A stretch of DNA of 64,000 nucleotides. It comes from Tabrizicola sp. YIM 78059 (GTDB lineage: Bacteria; Cyanobacteriota; Cyanobacteriia; PCC-6307; Cyanobiaceae). The notes beneath the pieces are model-generated. The model made no database searches and was not told the DNA's origin. It saw nothing but the letters and a program-made list of their open reading frames with translations. The stretch's first letter is position 1, and the number at the start of each line of letters is the position of its first letter. Positions 58,180 through 63,493 of this stretch are shown here, piece by piece. The DNA lies in the NCBI GenBank assembly GCA_943367815.1, contig CALRKA020000011.1:633-64632 (forward strand). Reading direction: 5' to 3'. The position numbers and the translations under genes are program-made.

Positions 58180-58406
58180 AAGTTTGCCGTCCATCCTTTC
58201 CTTCAATGACAGCAGCGCTGAAGTCGGCGCTAAGGAACAACGGCCGGAAGGGACAGGAAAACCACGCTAATCTGGACAATGAATACTCAGGGCTAGCCAT
58301 CGGTAATCCCACCCCCTAACGGATTGATTCCCGCAACGGATGGAATCCCTACTTCAGGATGGCGGTGTCCAACATGGCTCCCTGAACGCGGGAGTTCACC
58401 CATCAC

Positions 58407-59516
58407 TTGTTTGTTCCGATGATTGTCCTGTCGACCCGTCATGACCCAGAGAGGGAACGATTGAAACCACCCGAGACCCCAGACGACGAACGCCTTCGGC
58501 TCGCCAAGCTCCGGTCGCTCCGCTTGCTGGACACGGAGCAGGACGACCCTCATTTCGATCGCATCACCCGGATGGCGAGGCGCATCTTCAAGGTGCCGAT
58601 CGCGATGGTCAGCCTCCTGGACGAAAGCCGTCAATGGTTCAAATCCTGTGAGGGTTTTGATGTTTCAGAAACCCCCAGAACCGTTTCCTTCTGCGGCCAT
58701 GCGATCCTCGGTTCCGACGCGTTCATCGTCCCCGATGCCCTTGGAGATGAACGCTTTCACGATAATCCTCTGGTCCTGGGCGAGCCCCATGTCCGCTTCT
58801 ATGCCGGCTGTCCGCTGACGGTGGACCATCGCAAGATTGGAACGCTCTGCATCGTCGATCAGGTGCCCCGAACCCTTGATGAGGATCAGATTGAGATCCT
58901 GAAGGATCTGGCGAAAGTGGTGGAACAGGAGATCGCCTCCACGCTTCTTGCCATCAGGGATCGGCTCACCGGCCTTGAGAACCGCCGCGGCTTCCTTGCC
59001 CTCGCCCAGCAGAGTCTTCAACTCTGCACACGCCAGGCAACGCCGGTTTCACTTCTCTATCTCGACCTGGACGATTTCCAGCTCTTCAATCAGCTCCACG
59101 GGCGTCAAGCGGGCGATGACGCGCTGATCAACCTGGCCGATCGGATCAAGGATGTCTGCCGAGACTCCGATGTGGTGGCCAGACTGGGGGGTGATGAGTT
59201 TGTGGTCCTGCTGATCAACGCGACCCGGGAACAGGCAGACATCGTTGTCGATCGCATCAAGAAGGCCCTCAGCCAGGACAACAGGCTGACGAACAAGGGG
59301 TATCCCATCTCGTTCTCTTTCGGTATCACGGCCTATCAGCCGGAGCGGCATGAAACGATTGTCGAGCTGCTGGCCGATGGAGAGGCCTTGATGGAGGAGA
59401 TCAGAATGCTGCGAACCTTCCACCAGCTTGAAGGCAAAACGCCTGAGCCAGTTCCCTCTGAAGACGACCGCATCTGGGCAGGCGTCAACAGCAAGCTCCA
59501 GGATGGTACCGGCTGA
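58407..59516 (+). CDS. GAF-GGDEF diguanylate cyclase
   Basis: FDRIT, RQWFKS, FCGHAI, RFYAG GAF; DRLTGL, DLDDF, RDSD I-site, RLGGDEF. Confidence 0.92.
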   Translation: MFVPMIVLSTRHDPERERLKPPETPDDERLRLAKLRSLRLLDTEQDDPHFDRITRMARRIFKVPIAMVSLLDESRQWFKSCEGFDVSETPRTVSFCGHAILGSDAFIVPDALGDERFHDNPLVLGEPHVRFYAGCPLTVDHRKIGTLCIVDQVPRTLDEDQIEILKDLAKVVEQEIASTLLAIRDRLTGLENRRGFLALAQQSLQLCTRQATPVSLLYLDLDDFQLFNQLHGRQAGDDALINLADRIKDVCRDSDVVARLGGDEFVVLLINATREQADIVVDRIKKALSQDNRLTNKGYPISFSFGITAYQPERHETIVELLADGEALMEEIRMLRTFHQLEGKTPEPVPSEDDRIWAGVNSKLQDGTG

Positions 59517-59558
59517 GGCTCCCAGCACGTCGAAGGGCCATCAGTCAATCGGCCATCA

Positions 59559-62150
59559 TCATCCTTGCTTGGGGGCAGTCTCCAGAATCCTCCTGATCGT
59601 CTGATCAAGCTCCTTGAGTTTCACGGGCTTGGCCAGATAGGCATTGGCACCGGCCGCCAGACACTTTTCCCGGTCACCTTTCATCGCCATCGCCGTCAAC
59701 ACGATGGTGGGGGTTGCCGCCAGGTCAGGCCTGTCACTGGAGCGGATCATGCGTAGGACGAAAAAGCCGTCCACTAACGGCATCGATAGATCAAGGATCA
59801 ACAGATGCGGAACATGGTCGTGCAGGAAATCGATCGCCTCCTGGCCATTGACCACTTGATGCACTTGGTATCCCTTGGCGCTGAGATAACGCGAATAGAT
59901 CAGCCTGTTGTCCAGGTTGTCCTCGGCAAGCAAGATCAAAGGCCGATCCATCCGGGCTCCCGATCCTGGCTCGGCTGAGTCAACCTGCCCCCTTGCAGGA
60001 TCAGAACCACCCATTGCCGTCTCTGTGGCGAGCGTGACGGGGAGATGGATGCTGAAACGAGTGCCCTGCCCCAGGCTCGATTGCACCCGAATATCGCCGC
60101 CATGGGCAACAAGGATTCGCTTCACGATCGAGAGTCCAAGGCCGGAGCCTGTGAACTGGCGATTCAAGCCGCTCTCGATCTGCACGAACGGTTGGAAGAT
60201 CCGTTCCTGATCCTCAGGGTCGATGCCGATTCCTGAATCGATCACACACAGGTCGAGCGTGGCCTGGCCAGATACCGCCACTGGTGAACGCGCCAGCCTG
60301 ACCACAAGGCGAACGGCTCCCGCCTCAGGAGTGAACTTGATGGCATTGCTTAGGAGGTTGATCAGAACCTGTCGGAGCAGCCGCTCATCCAGCAGGAGGG
60401 CAGGCAGACCGGGCTCAATCTCCAATGACAACAGGATGGACTTGGCCTCCGCCATTCTCTGAATCGTGGCGACACAGGAGCGGCAGAGCAGAGTGATCGA
60501 GGCAGGATGGAGATGGACTTCAAGCTTGCCAGCTTCAATCTTGGTGATGTCCAGGATATCGTTGATCAACTCCAGCAGATGGTTGCCACTTCGATCAATC
60601 TCCTCTAATGCCTTCCGCTGTATAGTAGTGATCTCACCATAGATATTGTCCTGCAGGGATTCCGCCATGCCGAGGATGCCATTCAGTGGGGTTCGCAGTT
60701 CATGGCTCATGTTGGCAAGGAACTCATCCTTCAGGCGCGTGGAGCGAGCCAGCTGGTCATTGATCGAGGCCAACTCCATATTCATTGTGATCAGGCGTTC
60801 TTCAGCAAGCTTTTTCTCCTGCAGCTCGTCTTCCAGCTTGGCGAACAAGTCAGCCTGCTGGATGGCAATACTGAGCTGGCTCGCAATATGTTTCACAACC
60901 TGAACATCTTCTTCAGTCCAGCGACGAGGCCGTTTGGAGTGGTGCATACAAAGCAGCCCCCACAGGCGGGAACCGCAGATCAGGGGAACCACCAGATTGG
61001 ATCGAATCTTCGAGCCAAGAAGCAGCTCTCGATAGCAGGGCTCCAGGTCAGCTGTCGCCACGTCGTCAATGACCTGATGTCCGCCCTTGAGATAACGCGC
61101 CACCAAGGCATCGTCGAAGCATGGATCTTCGAAAGAAACGGACAACAACGATTCCGTATCGGGATGGACAGCCTCGGCAATAAAGGAACCCCGATGGAAC
61201 TGAGACTCTTGATCAAACTGGTAGATCGCCACACGGTCCACGGCGAGATAGGGGAGCATTTCATTGACAGCCACCTGAAAGATGCGCTTAAGCTCAAGAA
61301 ACGTCAGAATCCGCTCTGTAATCTCACGCAGGATCAGCTCCCTTTGCACCTGGCGCCTTAAGTTGATAGCATTCTGCTGCATTTTTTCCGCCATCTGATC
61401 AAACGCCACAGAAATCCCAGCCAGCTCGTCAGAGCCACTCAATCCACTCCTTACGGCAAGGTCACCCTCACCCAGTGCATGGCTGGCTTCAATGAGCTTT
61501 CCAATCCGGTTGGTCAGTGCATACTGAAAGAAGAGCCATACACAGATACCGAGAACGACGAGGAGGGCATTGAAAAGCAAGGCTCGTCCCAATGCCTCTC
61601 GAAACGCACTGGCCTTCGCTTCATTCAGACCATACTTAGCGTAGAAGATTCCGACCCTAGACGGCATCAGTTCGCCGGGGAGGGGCTTGAGAAGGATGGG
61701 ATAAACAGCCGAAAGATACGAGCGATCTTGAGAAAGGCTCACCGTTCCGCGAAGCGTACGACGTGCCTGGGAAAAAATGGATGCCAATGGCGCAGCATTC
61801 GTCAGCACAATGAAATGGCCAACTTGGCTGTAGTCACTGGAATAGAGAACGATGTTCCTGTCACTGAAAAGACTGACACTTAGATAGCCTGGATTGGCAC
61901 CCAGACGACTGATCAACGAAACAACCCGATCAGCTTCATCATCGGTTCGATATAGATAGTCCATCATCCGCGCCGTCTGGGAGGCCGAGGACTTCAGATT
62001 GATGATGGCACTTTGCTCGGTCCTGCGATTCGCGTCTTGAACTTCCAGAACGAACTGTATGGCACTAATTGAAAATCCACTGACAACAATCAGCGCCGGG
62101 ATTGTAAAGCGAAGCGGTGGAGGCAATCTCGTCATGATGGCGTCGAACAT
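59559..62150 (-). CDS. hybrid histidine kinase: TM-periplasmic-TM-HAMP-CBCR GAF-HisKA-HATPase-REC
   Basis: DELAG..AFDQM HAMP; EDPCF and PCY in GAF; FLANMSHELRTPLN; NLLSNAIKFT; DSGIG; GSGLGL; LAEDN..LDLSMP..KP. Confidence 0.92.
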   Translation of the reverse strand: MFDAIMTRLPPPLRFTIPALIVVSGFSISAIQFVLEVQDANRRTEQSAIINLKSSASQTARMMDYLYRTDDEADRVVSLISRLGANPGYLSVSLFSDRNIVLYSSDYSQVGHFIVLTNAAPLASIFSQARRTLRGTVSLSQDRSYLSAVYPILLKPLPGELMPSRVGIFYAKYGLNEAKASAFREALGRALLFNALLVVLGICVWLFFQYALTNRIGKLIEASHALGEGDLAVRSGLSGSDELAGISVAFDQMAEKMQQNAINLRRQVQRELILREITERILTFLELKRIFQVAVNEMLPYLAVDRVAIYQFDQESQFHRGSFIAEAVHPDTESLLSVSFEDPCFDDALVARYLKGGHQVIDDVATADLEPCYRELLLGSKIRSNLVVPLICGSRLWGLLCMHHSKRPRRWTEEDVQVVKHIASQLSIAIQQADLFAKLEDELQEKKLAEERLITMNMELASINDQLARSTRLKDEFLANMSHELRTPLNGILGMAESLQDNIYGEITTIQRKALEEIDRSGNHLLELINDILDITKIEAGKLEVHLHPASITLLCRSCVATIQRMAEAKSILLSLEIEPGLPALLLDERLLRQVLINLLSNAIKFTPEAGAVRLVVRLARSPVAVSGQATLDLCVIDSGIGIDPEDQERIFQPFVQIESGLNRQFTGSGLGLSIVKRILVAHGGDIRVQSSLGQGTRFSIHLPVTLATETAMGGSDPARGQVDSAEPGSGARMDRPLILLAEDNLDNRLIYSRYLSAKGYQVHQVVNGQEAIDFLHDHVPHLLILDLSMPLVDGFFVLRMIRSSDRPDLAATPTIVLTAMAMKGDREKCLAAGANAYLAKPVKLKELDQTIRRILETAPKQG

Positions 62151-63188
62151 CTAGCGTTCAGCCAGTACACGTTCGACAAACTGCGCATCCAGGAGACTGG
62201 CTGGATCAACCTCTTTAGCGATCAGGCCACTGTCATGCATGACCCGTATCAAGTTCGTCATGGAGGTGACGAGGGATGGATCCCGCTGACTCAGCAATGC
62301 CACATTCTCCTCAAGGGATGGCTGCTTCAGCAGTTGGAAAGCCTGCAGCATCTCTTCCGGCTTCACCTGTGTGCGCCTGGCCATGCGTCGCGTGGCATCG
62401 GCAGGATTCCTGTTGAAATATTCCAAAGCCTTGAATCTTGCCGCCACAAGGGCCTGTAGATTCTCAGCGCTTTCGGCGATCGCCTGGGTGCTGACGGCAA
62501 GGGTGTCCACGATTTCGCCTGGGATCTGGGCACTGTCGAACAACGGGATGGCTCCCGCCTTCAAAAGTTTGATGCGAGCCGGGCCGAAGGTCACCACCGC
62601 ATCGACCCTGCCGGCCTTGTAGGCGGATTCGTGATCACTCAGCTCCAACGACACCACCTTGACATCCTGAGGTGTCATGTCATTGATCTCCAGGGCCCTG
62701 CCGAGAAAAAAGGCCCCCAGGGCGGTGGCCTCCACACCGATGCGTTTCCCCTTGAGGTCCCGCATCGTCGTCAAGCCGGGCCTGGCGAGGATCACATCAC
62801 CACCATTGGAGTAGTCCAAGATGGCAATGATCCTGATGTCACCCTGGGTGGCGGCCAAGGTGATCACCTGATCAATCGACAGGCCGGCTCCGTCGATCTC
62901 ATTGTTGCGGTAGGCCCTGACCTCCTCGGTTCCGGAAGGAAAATCCATCAGTCTGATGGGCTTGCCTTTCAGTTCTCCCAGGTCTCTCGCCAGGAAGAGG
63001 GTTTCATACCCCGTCCAGAGGTTGGCGCCGATTCTCAAGGGCATGGACGGGGGCCCGAAGCAACTCGTCAGCGCCACCATCAAGGCCAGGGCAAGCATGC
63101 CGAGCAGGAACCACGCCGGCCGACTCCGCATCCTCAACGTCCTTTTTTGCCCTCTGAAATGGTCCTCCATAGGGTTGACGGACCTCAA
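62151..63188 (-). CDS. NMT1/SsuA-like substrate-binding lipoprotein (start may be 63170 or 63131)
   Basis: Lipobox ALTSC, WTGYETLFLA, DYSNGGD, LKGKRIGVE, VDAVVTF; stop directly abuts the kinase ATG. Confidence 0.85.
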   Translation of the reverse strand: MRSVNPMEDHFRGQKRTLRMRSRPAWFLLGMLALALMVALTSCFGPPSMPLRIGANLWTGYETLFLARDLGELKGKPIRLMDFPSGTEEVRAYRNNEIDGAGLSIDQVITLAATQGDIRIIAILDYSNGGDVILARPGLTTMRDLKGKRIGVEATALGAFFLGRALEINDMTPQDVKVVSLELSDHESAYKAGRVDAVVTFGPARIKLLKAGAIPLFDSAQIPGEIVDTLAVSTQAIAESAENLQALVAARFKALEYFNRNPADATRRMARRTQVKPEEMLQAFQLLKQPSLEENVALLSQRDPSLVTSMTNLIRVMHDSGLIAKEVDPASLLDAQFVERVLAER

Positions 63189-63289
63189 AGGAAACGAAGA
63201 ACCGGCCGTTGAGGGACAGATTCAAGTGTGAGTTTATTCACGGGTAAATGTTCTTCGATGGGTCGGTCAGATTCCTGTGGGTGAAGCAA

Positions 63290-63493
63290 TCATTCTGGCC
63301 GGGAGGCGTACCAGCGCTCGATCCTGTAACCCAGGATCACCAGCAGCACCACCAACCAGAACCACAGTTCCGGTGGGTTGGCATTGCACAGCACCACCAG
63401 CAGCACCACCTCACTGACCAGCCAGGGAAGCTCCTGGCGCAGCAGGGGATTGCGGAGCTGCCACCAGCGACGATCAGCCATGGGGACGCTCAC
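63290..63493 (-). CDS. small membrane hypothetical protein
   Basis: Two TM-like segments; GTG directly after the upstream TGA. Confidence 0.7.
   Translation of the reverse strand: MSVPMADRRWWQLRNPLLRQELPWLVSEVVLLVVLCNANPPELWFWLVVLLVILGYRIERWYASRPE

Follow-up and report, generated by a model that had tools for sequence, protein, structure and literature searches.

The window, a stretch of 64,000 nucleotides from a Cyanobium-type genome, contains three genes in a 5.1-kb islet (positions 58180-63290) that was delimited by its GC contrast. Two of these genes lie on the minus strand, one encoding a solute-binding lipoprotein (SBP; 62151-63188) and the other a hybrid sensor histidine kinase of 863 amino acids (P0001; 59559-62150), and the TAG stop codon of the SBP gene abuts the ATG of the kinase gene. 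The third gene, on the plus strand, encodes a GAF-GGDEF diguanylate cyclase (58407-59516) and is convergent with the kinase gene, with a spacer of 42 nt between them. We defined P0001 by its open reading frame, its Pfam domains and its orthologues in Cyanobium and Synechococcus strains. Its domains follow in the order transmembrane helix, sCache, transmembrane helix, HAMP, cyanobacteriochrome (CBCR) GAF, HisKA, HATPase and REC, and all coordinates given for them below are on the minus strand.

P0001 has the parts of a hybrid kinase: a HisKA/DHp domain (residues 474-541, 60528-60731; Pfam E = 1.9e-22) with the phospho-accepting His483 in an H-box, SHELRTPLN, that is invariant across the kinase orthologue alignment; an HATPase_c catalytic domain (residues 588-706, 60033-60389; E = 4.7e-30); and a fused C-terminal receiver (Response_reg, residues 739-852, 59595-59936; E = 2.1e-22) with its acceptor Asp in ILDLSMP. 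The HAMP domain (residues 211-258, 61377-61520; PF00672, E = 3.4e-8) precedes the GAF. These Pfam assignments, with an intact kinase core, agree with the earlier note, which had placed the GAF after a periplasmic sensor and HAMP and before HisKA-HATPase-REC. A genome search found no free-standing Hpt protein, although divergent Hpt proteins could escape detection in such a search; the sole Hpt match was part of another unorthodox kinase.

The extracytoplasmic portion of P0001 is bounded by two hydrophobic helices, TM1 (about residues 15-35, 62043-62111) and TM2 (about residues 190-212, 61521-61583). The sensor domain between them (residues ~37-189, 61584-62042) was modelled by AlphaFold2 as a single PDC/sCache fold, with a confident pLDDT of about 90 for residues 40-180, and Foldseek matched it to the sensor domains of WalK (1e-6), KinD, DctB and CitA. 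Homologues of this domain formed 140 clusters, and in every case the domain was N-terminal with a HAMP domain directly after it. The SBP encoded upstream is an orphan member of the NMT1/SsuA family (Pfam NMT1_2, 2.4e-14) with the lipobox LTSC, and it matched TIGR01728 at 5.6e-37, under the curated cutoff. An assignment of its ligand from solved relatives was dropped, as the PDB matches were weak (TauA, 1.6e-6; SsuA). An NMT1_2 SBP lies immediately upstream of the kinase in all ten loci examined, three of which belong to PAS-type relatives that have the sensor-HAMP module alone in common with P0001. This adjacency ties the SBP gene closely to the kinase gene and supports a light-plus-ligand sensor. 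The SBP is 64% identical to its copy in a Pseudanabaena-like homologue locus, and the kinases are about 45% identical across those lineages. The pairing of an SBP with an sCache-HAMP sensor, which also occurs with a PAS domain in place of the GAF, seems to represent a sensor family of broad distribution that has not been described before.

We compared the GAF (residues 287-430, 60861-61292) with the PDB by phmmer and found 6oap (2e-27), miRFP670nano (2e-24) and TePixJ (about 1e-20), the matches over this range being CBCR and phytochrome, that is, bilin-binding, GAFs only. The AlphaFold2 model of the domain (pLDDT 88.9) matched TePixJ (4glq) in Foldseek with a TM score of 0.90 and an rmsd of 1.4 Å; all 50 best Foldseek matches were bilin-binding GAFs, and holo-CBCRs fitted at 1.4-1.9 Å. 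Because the phmmer E-values and all 50 structural matches point the same way, the GAF motif reflects homology and not chance. Pfam found no PAS or PHY domain adjoining it, which leaves a phytochrome-type GAF standing alone, without the knotted PAS-GAF-PHY core. In a FastTree phylogeny, the GAF falls within a clade (support 0.96) of 30 members that uniformly combine D/ExCF with Cys-Tyr. The deeper node that would place this clade among characterised CBCR lineages had a support of 0.23, and we therefore dropped the placement and assigned no lineage; for the same reason, our colour prediction is drawn from motifs, as is the likeness, described below, to the AM1_1499g1/AM1_6305g1 lineage.

When P0001 is aligned by MAFFT with the solved GAF of TePixJ, its EDPCF lies over the EDPCF of TePixJ (D492-P-C494-F) column for column, Cys372 occupies the invariant first-Cys column with TePixJ Cys522, and the Cys-to-Cys distance is 28 residues in both proteins. 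TePixJ binds C3^1 of its bilin by C522 and C10 by C494 (PMC6955287). In P0001, the DXCF motif (Asp342-Pro-Cys344-Phe345; codons GAT CCA TGC TTC, 61116-61127) is predicted to contribute the second, C10-ligating Cys, and Cys372 (TGC, followed by TAT for Tyr373; 61032-61037) the first, C3^1-attaching one; reading the codons showed that the earlier note had located both motifs exactly. All sequence and fold tests agree in identifying the GAF as a predicted DXCF-type two-Cys CBCR domain, and the description of it as TePixJ-type was borne out by phmmer, the alignment and the modelled fold. The bilin-attachment Cys that had been reported is present; what had gone unremarked is that the CBCR-typical His after it is absent, being replaced by Tyr in P0001 and in 24 of 24 orthologues. 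We treated this His as a typical, not a defining, CBCR feature. Cys-Tyr occurs in more than 110 of 390 CBCR-type GAFs of related proteins, and 92 of the 390 pair it with D/ExCF. Cys-Tyr has been reported to promote reversible ligation of the second Cys to C10 and blue/teal photocycles, and its presence points to a putative blue/teal-type subclass for P0001.

Conservation was assessed among 24 orthologues that span 40-83% identity. C344, F345, C372, Y373 and W397 are invariant, Y353, R374 and H403 are kept in 23 and N385 in 22, against a pairwise identity of only 59% over the entire GAF; we count as support that selection appears to act on the bilin-pocket residues. The DXCF Asp position holds D in 18 orthologues and E in 6, and we know of no characterised EXCF CBCR. 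P0001 and its five closest relatives have Gly357 where TePixJ and miRFP670nano (R71) have Arg, a residue found in 12 of the 24; in miRFP670nano, R71 hydrogen-bonds the bilin (PMC6336887). An extra Cys, Cys401 in LWGLLC, is also invariant.

These departures from the TePixJ pattern bear on whether the GAF switches colour. It could bind bilin covalently and yet serve as a dark sensor, responding for example to how much bilin is available or, by way of a labile Cys344-C10 adduct, to thiol or redox state, with the periplasmic ligand as the main regulated input. The engineered H87Y substitution in miRFP670nano, which preserves covalent binding and brings the Tyr into pi-stacking contact with the bilin, accompanies lost photoswitching and bright fluorescence (PMC6336887); in addition, Cys401 could add thiol chemistry, and the Arg that contacts the propionate is missing in the subclade of P0001. 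We nevertheless regard a dark sensor as unlikely. The loss of switching in miRFP670nano was ascribed to N117H, which fixes ring D (PMC6336887), and a His is found at that position in photoactive TePixJ as well as in P0001; moreover, a His-to-Tyr change in a natural DXCF background did not abolish the photocycle but promoted a reversible blue/teal one, and all residues required for a two-Cys photocycle are kept in P0001.

We also considered that the GAF may no longer bind bilin at all, its cysteines serving instead as a metal site or in a redox-sensitive disulfide, or the whole domain being no more than a structural spacer, in which case P0001 would be an ordinary SBP-dependent chemosensory kinase. 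A PAS domain stands in place of the GAF behind the sensor-HAMP module in 26 of 55 relatives, so the middle domain is exchangeable, and the missing His, the Glu in six orthologues and the Gly in place of Arg in P0001 count in favour of this reading. Yet both Cys residues, Phe345, Tyr373, Trp397, His403 and Asn385, which lie exactly where bilin-pocket residues do, vary little or not at all among the divergent orthologues, and both the uniform motifs of the 30-member clade and the fit of the fold to holo-CBCRs argue for a bilin-binding domain. The genome, furthermore, encodes one Fe_bilin_red protein (PF05996, E = 1.5e-65), a PcyA-type bilin reductase, and by this gene the host is predicted to make phycocyanobilin (PCB). 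Loss of bilin binding thus seems to us slightly less probable still than a dark sensor, and we favour a GAF that binds bilin and responds to light.

The third gene of the islet raises the question of output. Its product (Pfam GGDEF, 1.3e-35; GAF, 3.5e-19) has an intact GGDEF motif and RxxD I-site and lacks a REC domain, and its GAF is not of the CBCR type, giving no match to the CBCR GAF query. The gene is present in all five Cyanobium-type loci that we read (the window, L015, L016, L021 and L022), and a REC-GGDEF-EAL gene lies downstream in the Pseudanabaena-like locus (L017). In Thermosynechococcus, the blue/green and blue/teal CBCRs SesA, SesB and SesC, the subject of work by Enomoto et al., reportedly control c-di-GMP and cell aggregation. 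P0001 resembles them in having a DXCF-class CBCR with c-di-GMP enzymes in its genomic neighbourhood, but the Ses CBCRs are fused to GGDEF/EAL domains, whereas here the GGDEF domain is encoded by a separate, convergent gene for a cyclase that has neither a REC nor a CBCR GAF, and not every locus shows the association. The co-transferred GAF-GGDEF gene and the REC-GGDEF-EAL gene of L017 suggest a link to c-di-GMP. This link is weak, because the cyclase has no REC domain, because it is not orthologous to the partner in L017 (a common origin of the two was rejected, their similarity being generic to GGDEF domains, 38% over 89 aa), and because two other loci have no such neighbour: no c-di-GMP gene lies beside the SBP-kinase pair of P0037, and at the P0088 locus an MHYT-GAF kinase is found downstream and no c-di-GMP gene.

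The islet differs sharply in composition from its surroundings. Each of its genes has a GC content of 54-58%, whereas the flanks are at 73% and the genome as a whole is at 69.5%. Two other Cyanobium genomes (L015 and L016) carry the same cassette at the same site with the same GC contrast, and they share its flanks, which consist of CLC/OEP/OprB genes at one end and, at the other, a CusB-like gene together with a 63-aa ORF; the Pseudanabaena-like homologue, by comparison, is at native GC. We found no direct or inverted repeats above chance at the islet borders, and the window's single tRNA lies away from the islet, at 23.8 kb. Judged by composition and shared site, the islet is horizontally acquired, one cassette having apparently entered the Cyanobium lineage from a lower-GC cyanobacterium. 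That it is a decaying remnant of such a transfer, without current function in this genome, is very improbable: the foreign base composition, the split or fragmentary orthologues in the congeners G286 and G303 and the absence of the cassette from most of the genus would fit decay, but the three ORFs are intact here with every catalytic motif present, and several species, with kinases that share 64-82% identity, retain the cassette at one common site.

The family of Synechococcus, Cyanobium and Prochlorococcus is usually treated as lacking phytochrome-class photoreceptors. In our genome surveys, a CBCR-type GAF of any kind was found in 6 of 201 genomes of the family and 12 of 121 genomes of the genus, and the genome studied here encodes a second CBCR protein; the lineage is therefore CBCR-poor, not CBCR-free. 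The statement in the earlier note that marine picocyanobacteria are generally described as lacking such bilin photoreceptors thus stands as to rarity and fails as to absence. A marine setting found no support: the host is Cyanobium-type with a high GC content, and those of its relatives that are named come from lakes and brackish waters. The literature that we searched makes only generic mention of CBCRs in Cyanobium or other picocyanobacteria, and our claim of rarity consequently rests on the genome surveys.

Taken as a whole, the evidence makes it probable that P0001 is a two-input hybrid kinase, with a predicted sCache/SBP input and a predicted CBCR light input, encoded in a horizontally acquired cassette. 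In the mechanism that we propose, two sensory inputs are wired in series on a membrane-bound kinase. The sCache domain most likely senses whether the SBP, presumably transcribed together with the kinase, has its ligand bound, as LuxQ does with LuxP and TorS with TorT, and would pass the signal through TM2 to HAMP. The DXCF-class GAF, situated between HAMP and the DHp helix, most likely attaches PcyA-made phycocyanobilin via Cys372 to C3^1, while Cys344 would form a second, light-labile thioether to C10, a linkage that the replacement of the usual His by Tyr373 would favour; the dark state would be blue-absorbing and the photoproduct teal/green-absorbing. Both signals would be carried by a single continuous helical spine running from the HAMP helix through the N- and C-helices of the GAF to DHp. 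With a shared spine, kinase/phosphatase output would depend jointly on light colour and periplasmic ligand, and the fused REC might act as a sink or a relay.

Several known systems resemble parts of this arrangement. TePixJ, the prototype DXCF blue/green CBCR, shares the identical EDPCF as well as the Asp, Tyr, Asn and LLxxH His, and the two GAFs are 34% identical; it differs in having Cys-His, Arg at the position of Gly357 and a methyl-accepting chemotaxis protein (MCP) output, and its GAF belongs to a separate clade. The combination of DXCF with Cys-Tyr is that of the blue/teal CBCRs of the AM1_1499g1/AM1_6305g1 lineage, where it reportedly allows the ligation to C10 to be reversible (Fushimi and Narikawa). 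Closest to the GAF in both sequence and structure (rmsd 1.9 Å) is the 6oap protein from Leptolyngbya sp. JSC-1, a dual-sensor histidine kinase (Shin et al. 2019, 'molecular logic OR') in which a CBCR GAF is likewise joined straight to DHp and light is integrated with a second signal; unlike P0001, that kinase is soluble and takes its second signal through an N-terminal REC, and its GAF has Cys-His and no second Cys (DQYF). SynEtr1/UirS/PixA (Slr1212) of Synechocystis is also a membrane histidine kinase with a chemical-sensing N-terminal domain before a CBCR GAF and the kinase, but that domain is an intramembrane ethylene-binding one, in contrast to the periplasmic sCache and HAMP, separate SBP and hybrid REC found here. 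LuxP-LuxQ, TorT-TorS and WalK with YycH/YycI, the last including the closest sensor fold, are precedents for a periplasmic PDC/Cache sensor set by an adjacently encoded accessory protein; they have no photoreceptor domain, and the putative accessory protein here is an SBP of the NMT1/SsuA family.

What is new in P0001 is how known parts are arranged, and not the kind of photoreceptor. DXCF CBCRs, hybrid kinases and SBP co-sensors are known kinds, and SynEtr1/UirS and the dual-sensor histidine kinase are dual-input CBCR kinases already. A broader scenario, which we put forward tentatively and think rather doubtful, is that an input module of two genes, both widespread and uncharacterised and consisting of an orphan SBP of the NMT1 type and an sCache-HAMP sensor, captured a two-Cys blue/teal CBCR in cyanobacteria, so that light colour gates a periplasmic signal, and that transfer of the cassette with a diguanylate cyclase gave bilin colour vision and c-di-GMP control, for instance over the formation of microcolonies, to a picocyanobacterial lineage otherwise without such photoreceptors. 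P0001 offers a compact natural case in which chemical (SBP/Cache/HAMP) and light (CBCR) inputs act in series on one kinase, which may help to show how signals are integrated and may serve as an optogenetic scaffold, and the ligand of the SBP and sCache-HAMP family is worth finding. If some freshwater or brackish Cyanobium strains can sense the ratio of blue to green light, a cassette of this kind, whose two-Cys CBCR kinase appears to be functional, would account for it.

The minus-strand open reading frame 59559-62150 specifies a hybrid histidine kinase of 863 residues, in which Pfam detected, well over the curated cut-offs, a HAMP domain (residues 211-258), a GAF domain (287-430), HisKA (474-541, with the H-box SHELRTPLN), HATPase_c (588-706) and a receiver domain (REC; 739-852) with its acceptor Asp in ILDLSMP. 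Read from these motifs, the catalytic core (H-box, HATPase and REC acceptor Asp) is intact. Hydrophobic helices at approximately 15-35 and 190-212 bracket about 150 N-terminal residues for which Pfam returned no match. An AlphaFold2 model of this sensor, built from a seven-sequence alignment, reached a pLDDT of approximately 90 for residues 40-180, with a predicted topology of helix, helix, two strands, helix and three strands, and its Foldseek neighbours were the extracellular PDC/Cache domains of WalK (1e-6), KinD, DctB and CitA. The confident model and these matches therefore bear out the proposal, made in the earlier note, of a periplasmic sensor domain, here called sCache, followed by HAMP.

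The same note had assigned the GAF to the two-cysteine cyanobacteriochromes (CBCRs) of the TePixJ type, and this assignment agreed with both the sequence and the predicted fold. Direct reading of the DNA gave Asp-Pro-Cys-Phe at codons 61127-61116 (D342-C344-F345, the DXCF motif) and Cys-Tyr at codons 61037-61032 (C372-Y373, with the bilin-attachment Cys), as claimed. Searching all PDB sequences with phmmer retrieved bilin-binding GAFs only, led by the Leptolyngbya dual-sensor histidine kinase 6oap (2e-27), miRFP670nano (2e-24), NpR6012g4 (1.5e-21) and TePixJ (approximately 1e-20), with bacteriophytochromes ranking far below. In the alignment with TePixJ, whose sequence was taken from the PDB alignment, EDPCF stands opposite EDPCF, Cys372 falls in the sole invariant Cys column and the Cys-to-Cys spacing is 28 residues in both proteins. 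In TePixJ, the bilin is bonded at C3^1 to C522 and at C10 to C494; the bond to C494 is the light-labile one that underlies the blue/green photocycle (PMC6955287). The AlphaFold2 model of the GAF (pLDDT 88.9, pTM 0.86) superposed on TePixJ (4glq) at 1.4 A with a TM-score of 0.90 and on 6oap at 1.9 A, and the 50 best structural neighbours were all bilin GAFs. On sequence and model, the domain is thus a DXCF CBCR by every testable feature except the typical His.

At that position, directly after the first Cys, the kinase has Tyr373. This variant does not disqualify the GAF as a CBCR, given its natural frequency and what is reported of His-to-Tyr replacement. Among 390 CBCR-type GAFs taken from the 120 proteins of a homology search, 96 combined DxCF with Cys-His and 92 paired D/ExCF and Cys-Tyr. 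Multi-GAF PixJ-like proteins, among them ones from Nostoc and Leptolyngbya, contributed many of these 92. Fushimi and Narikawa reported that, in a DXCF context, exchanging this His for Tyr 'enables reversible ligation activity' with a blue/teal photocycle, and that a natural blue/teal subgroup derives from this replacement (bioRxiv 10.1101/2020.12.27.424465). Despite an engineered H87Y substitution, miRFP670nano retains a covalent bilin linkage at the neighbouring Cys86, with pi-stacking of Tyr87 against the chromophore (PMC6336887).

Conservation within the family was examined in 24 orthologues (identity 39-83% for the N-terminal 460 residues and 44-83% for full-length proteins). C344, F345, C372, Y373 and W397 were invariant, Y353, R374 and H403 were present in 23 and N385 in 22, with only 59% pairwise identity over the whole GAF. 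Three features qualify this picture. The DXCF Asp was replaced by Glu in six orthologues. The kinase and its five closest relatives carry Gly357 where TePixJ and miRFP670nano have Arg, which in miRFP670nano (R71) contacts the bilin. A third cysteine, C401 in the LWGLLC motif (approximately 60948-60950), was also found in 24 of 24; it is shared with GAF1 of a second CBCR protein of the same genome but absent from TePixJ. Another cysteine, C392, lies at approximately 60975-60977. The second protein, a 1298-residue open frame on contig C2 (approximately 116700-120250, minus strand), is organized as CBS-PAS-PAS-GAF1-GAF2-HisKA-HATPase-REC; its GAF1 is canonical (DHCF...Cys-His), and GAF2 is without the second Cys and has Cys-Leu and a 15-residue insert. 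In a FastTree phylogeny of 388 GAFs, the kinase-family domains grouped as a separate clade of 30 (support 0.96), including two long-branch members that depart from the D/ExCF and Cys-Tyr pattern, one of which is this GAF2. The deeper node that places the clade had a support of 0.23.

Immediately upstream of the kinase, family profiles identified an NMT1/SsuA-type solute-binding lipoprotein (SBP; 62151-63188, minus strand; lipobox LTSC). Its TAG stop adjoins the kinase ATG, and use of an alternative start six codons further on would open a gap of 15 nt. Neither a permease nor an ATPase gene was found near the SBP, and its best matches of solved structure, TauA and SsuA, had weak E-values. A full-library HMMER search recovered sCache homologues in 140 clusters at 50% identity, always with the domain at the N terminus. 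Of 55 such clusters scanned with Pfam, 52 had HAMP, followed by PAS in 26 and GAF in approximately 11, with kinase, REC or GGDEF/EAL outputs. An NMT1_2 SBP directly preceded the sCache-HAMP kinase in all ten loci read, seven of this family and three of PAS-type relatives; the contexts of the latter look non-cyanobacterial. Between the Cyanobium cassette and that of a Pseudanabaena-like locus, identity was 64% for the SBP (L017:4997-5980 in the latter), approximately 45% for the kinase and approximately 40% for the sensor domain, which suggests a strongly conserved SBP ligand. Together, the unbroken adjacency and the high SBP identity point strongly, at the genomic level, to the SBP as the co-sensor of the sCache domain, the contact itself being putative.

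On the output side, the only Hpt match in the genome (contig C1:438289-438498) ends an unorthodox HATPase-REC-REC-Hpt kinase, and the search found no free-standing Hpt for hybrid kinases; the REC fused to our kinase may therefore be a sink or internal regulator. A REC-PP2C phosphatase gene follows the Hpt-bearing kinase. Convergent with the kinase lies a GAF-GGDEF diguanylate cyclase gene (58407-59516, plus strand) with intact GGDEF and RxxD motifs, whose product is without a REC and whose own GAF is not CBCR-like. The Pseudanabaena-like locus has a REC-GGDEF-EAL gene after the kinase; on comparison, its product and the GAF-GGDEF cyclase were not orthologous. Two other kinase loci read were without a c-di-GMP gene neighbour. 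A c-di-GMP output is accordingly a reasonable guess rather than a finding.

The GAF-GGDEF, kinase and SBP genes form an islet of 54-58% GC, against 73% in the flanks and 69.5% in the genome (3.14 Mb, 99.98% complete), and GC3 is 0.63 in the kinase versus 0.92 in the adjoining ClC gene. The cassette recurs between corresponding neighbours in all four other Cyanobium-type loci read, in two of which the GC contrast was likewise measured. On one side stands a 63-67-residue ORF with two hydrophobic segments (63290-63493, minus strand), which overlaps the stop of the upstream gene and whose place at the border is held by a 63-residue ORF in all four, followed by a CusB-like gene in three; the common flank on the other side is ClC/OEP/OprB. 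No repeats or tRNA mark the islet borders. The Pseudanabaena-like SBP-kinase pair sits at its native 41% GC. Kinase orthologues occur in about ten genomes of the genus and are broken in two, into frames of 379 and 555 residues (G286, C16:30864-32185) and fragments of 375 and 136 residues (G303, C10:57725-58742). Some species apparently have a cassette in decay. In a further genome, of the same family (G022, C1:779515-782103), a 246-residue sensor frame lies approximately 1.3 kb from a HAMP-GAF in a 1159-residue frame, possibly a copy that was interrupted or rearranged. The simplest reading is one ancient horizontal transfer, with a lower-GC cyanobacterium as donor, and then either loss or a spread by homologous recombination at the conserved flanks.

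The nearest named orthologues are from the Cyanobium-type picocyanobacteria Cyanobium sp. N.Huapi 1H5, Cyanobium gracile UHCC and Synechococcus spp. CS-1332 and CCY9201. They are strains of lakes and brackish waters; a marine origin is accordingly not established. A CBCR-type GAF of any kind is a rarity in this lineage, present in 6 of 201 family genomes and in 12 of 121 genus genomes. The second CBCR gene, too, occupies a low-GC islet (59% versus 69.5%). The host has one ferredoxin-dependent bilin reductase gene; phycocyanobilin should therefore be available.

Beside the architecture, homology, conservation, linkage and distribution observed here, we infer a bilin chemistry, colours, an SBP contact and a logic of integration as follows. 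Ligand-loaded SBP would act upon the sCache dimer, and the signal would pass through TM2 and HAMP to the N-terminal GAF helix. The state of the bilin would then set signal transfer through the long C-terminal GAF helix, predicted at 144-175 of the AlphaFold2 model, into the DHp. In the dark, the Cys344-C10 adduct would be present and the GAF blue-absorbing; in the light, the adduct would be broken and the GAF teal/green-absorbing. Chemical and light inputs would thus be integrated in series.

SBP-dependent Cache kinases such as LuxPQ and TorTS are known, as are kinases that pair a CBCR with a second input; the 6oap kinase integrates light and phosphorylation. What is new is how the parts come together: a hybrid kinase that unites sCache-HAMP with a two-Cys Cys-Tyr CBCR and is accompanied by an orphan NMT1-type SBP. 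The combination forms a distinct GAF clade and probably reached, through horizontal transfer, a picocyanobacterial lineage poor in photoreceptors. NMT1_2 SBPs with sCache-HAMP look like a widespread, apparently undescribed family of SBP-dependent sensors.
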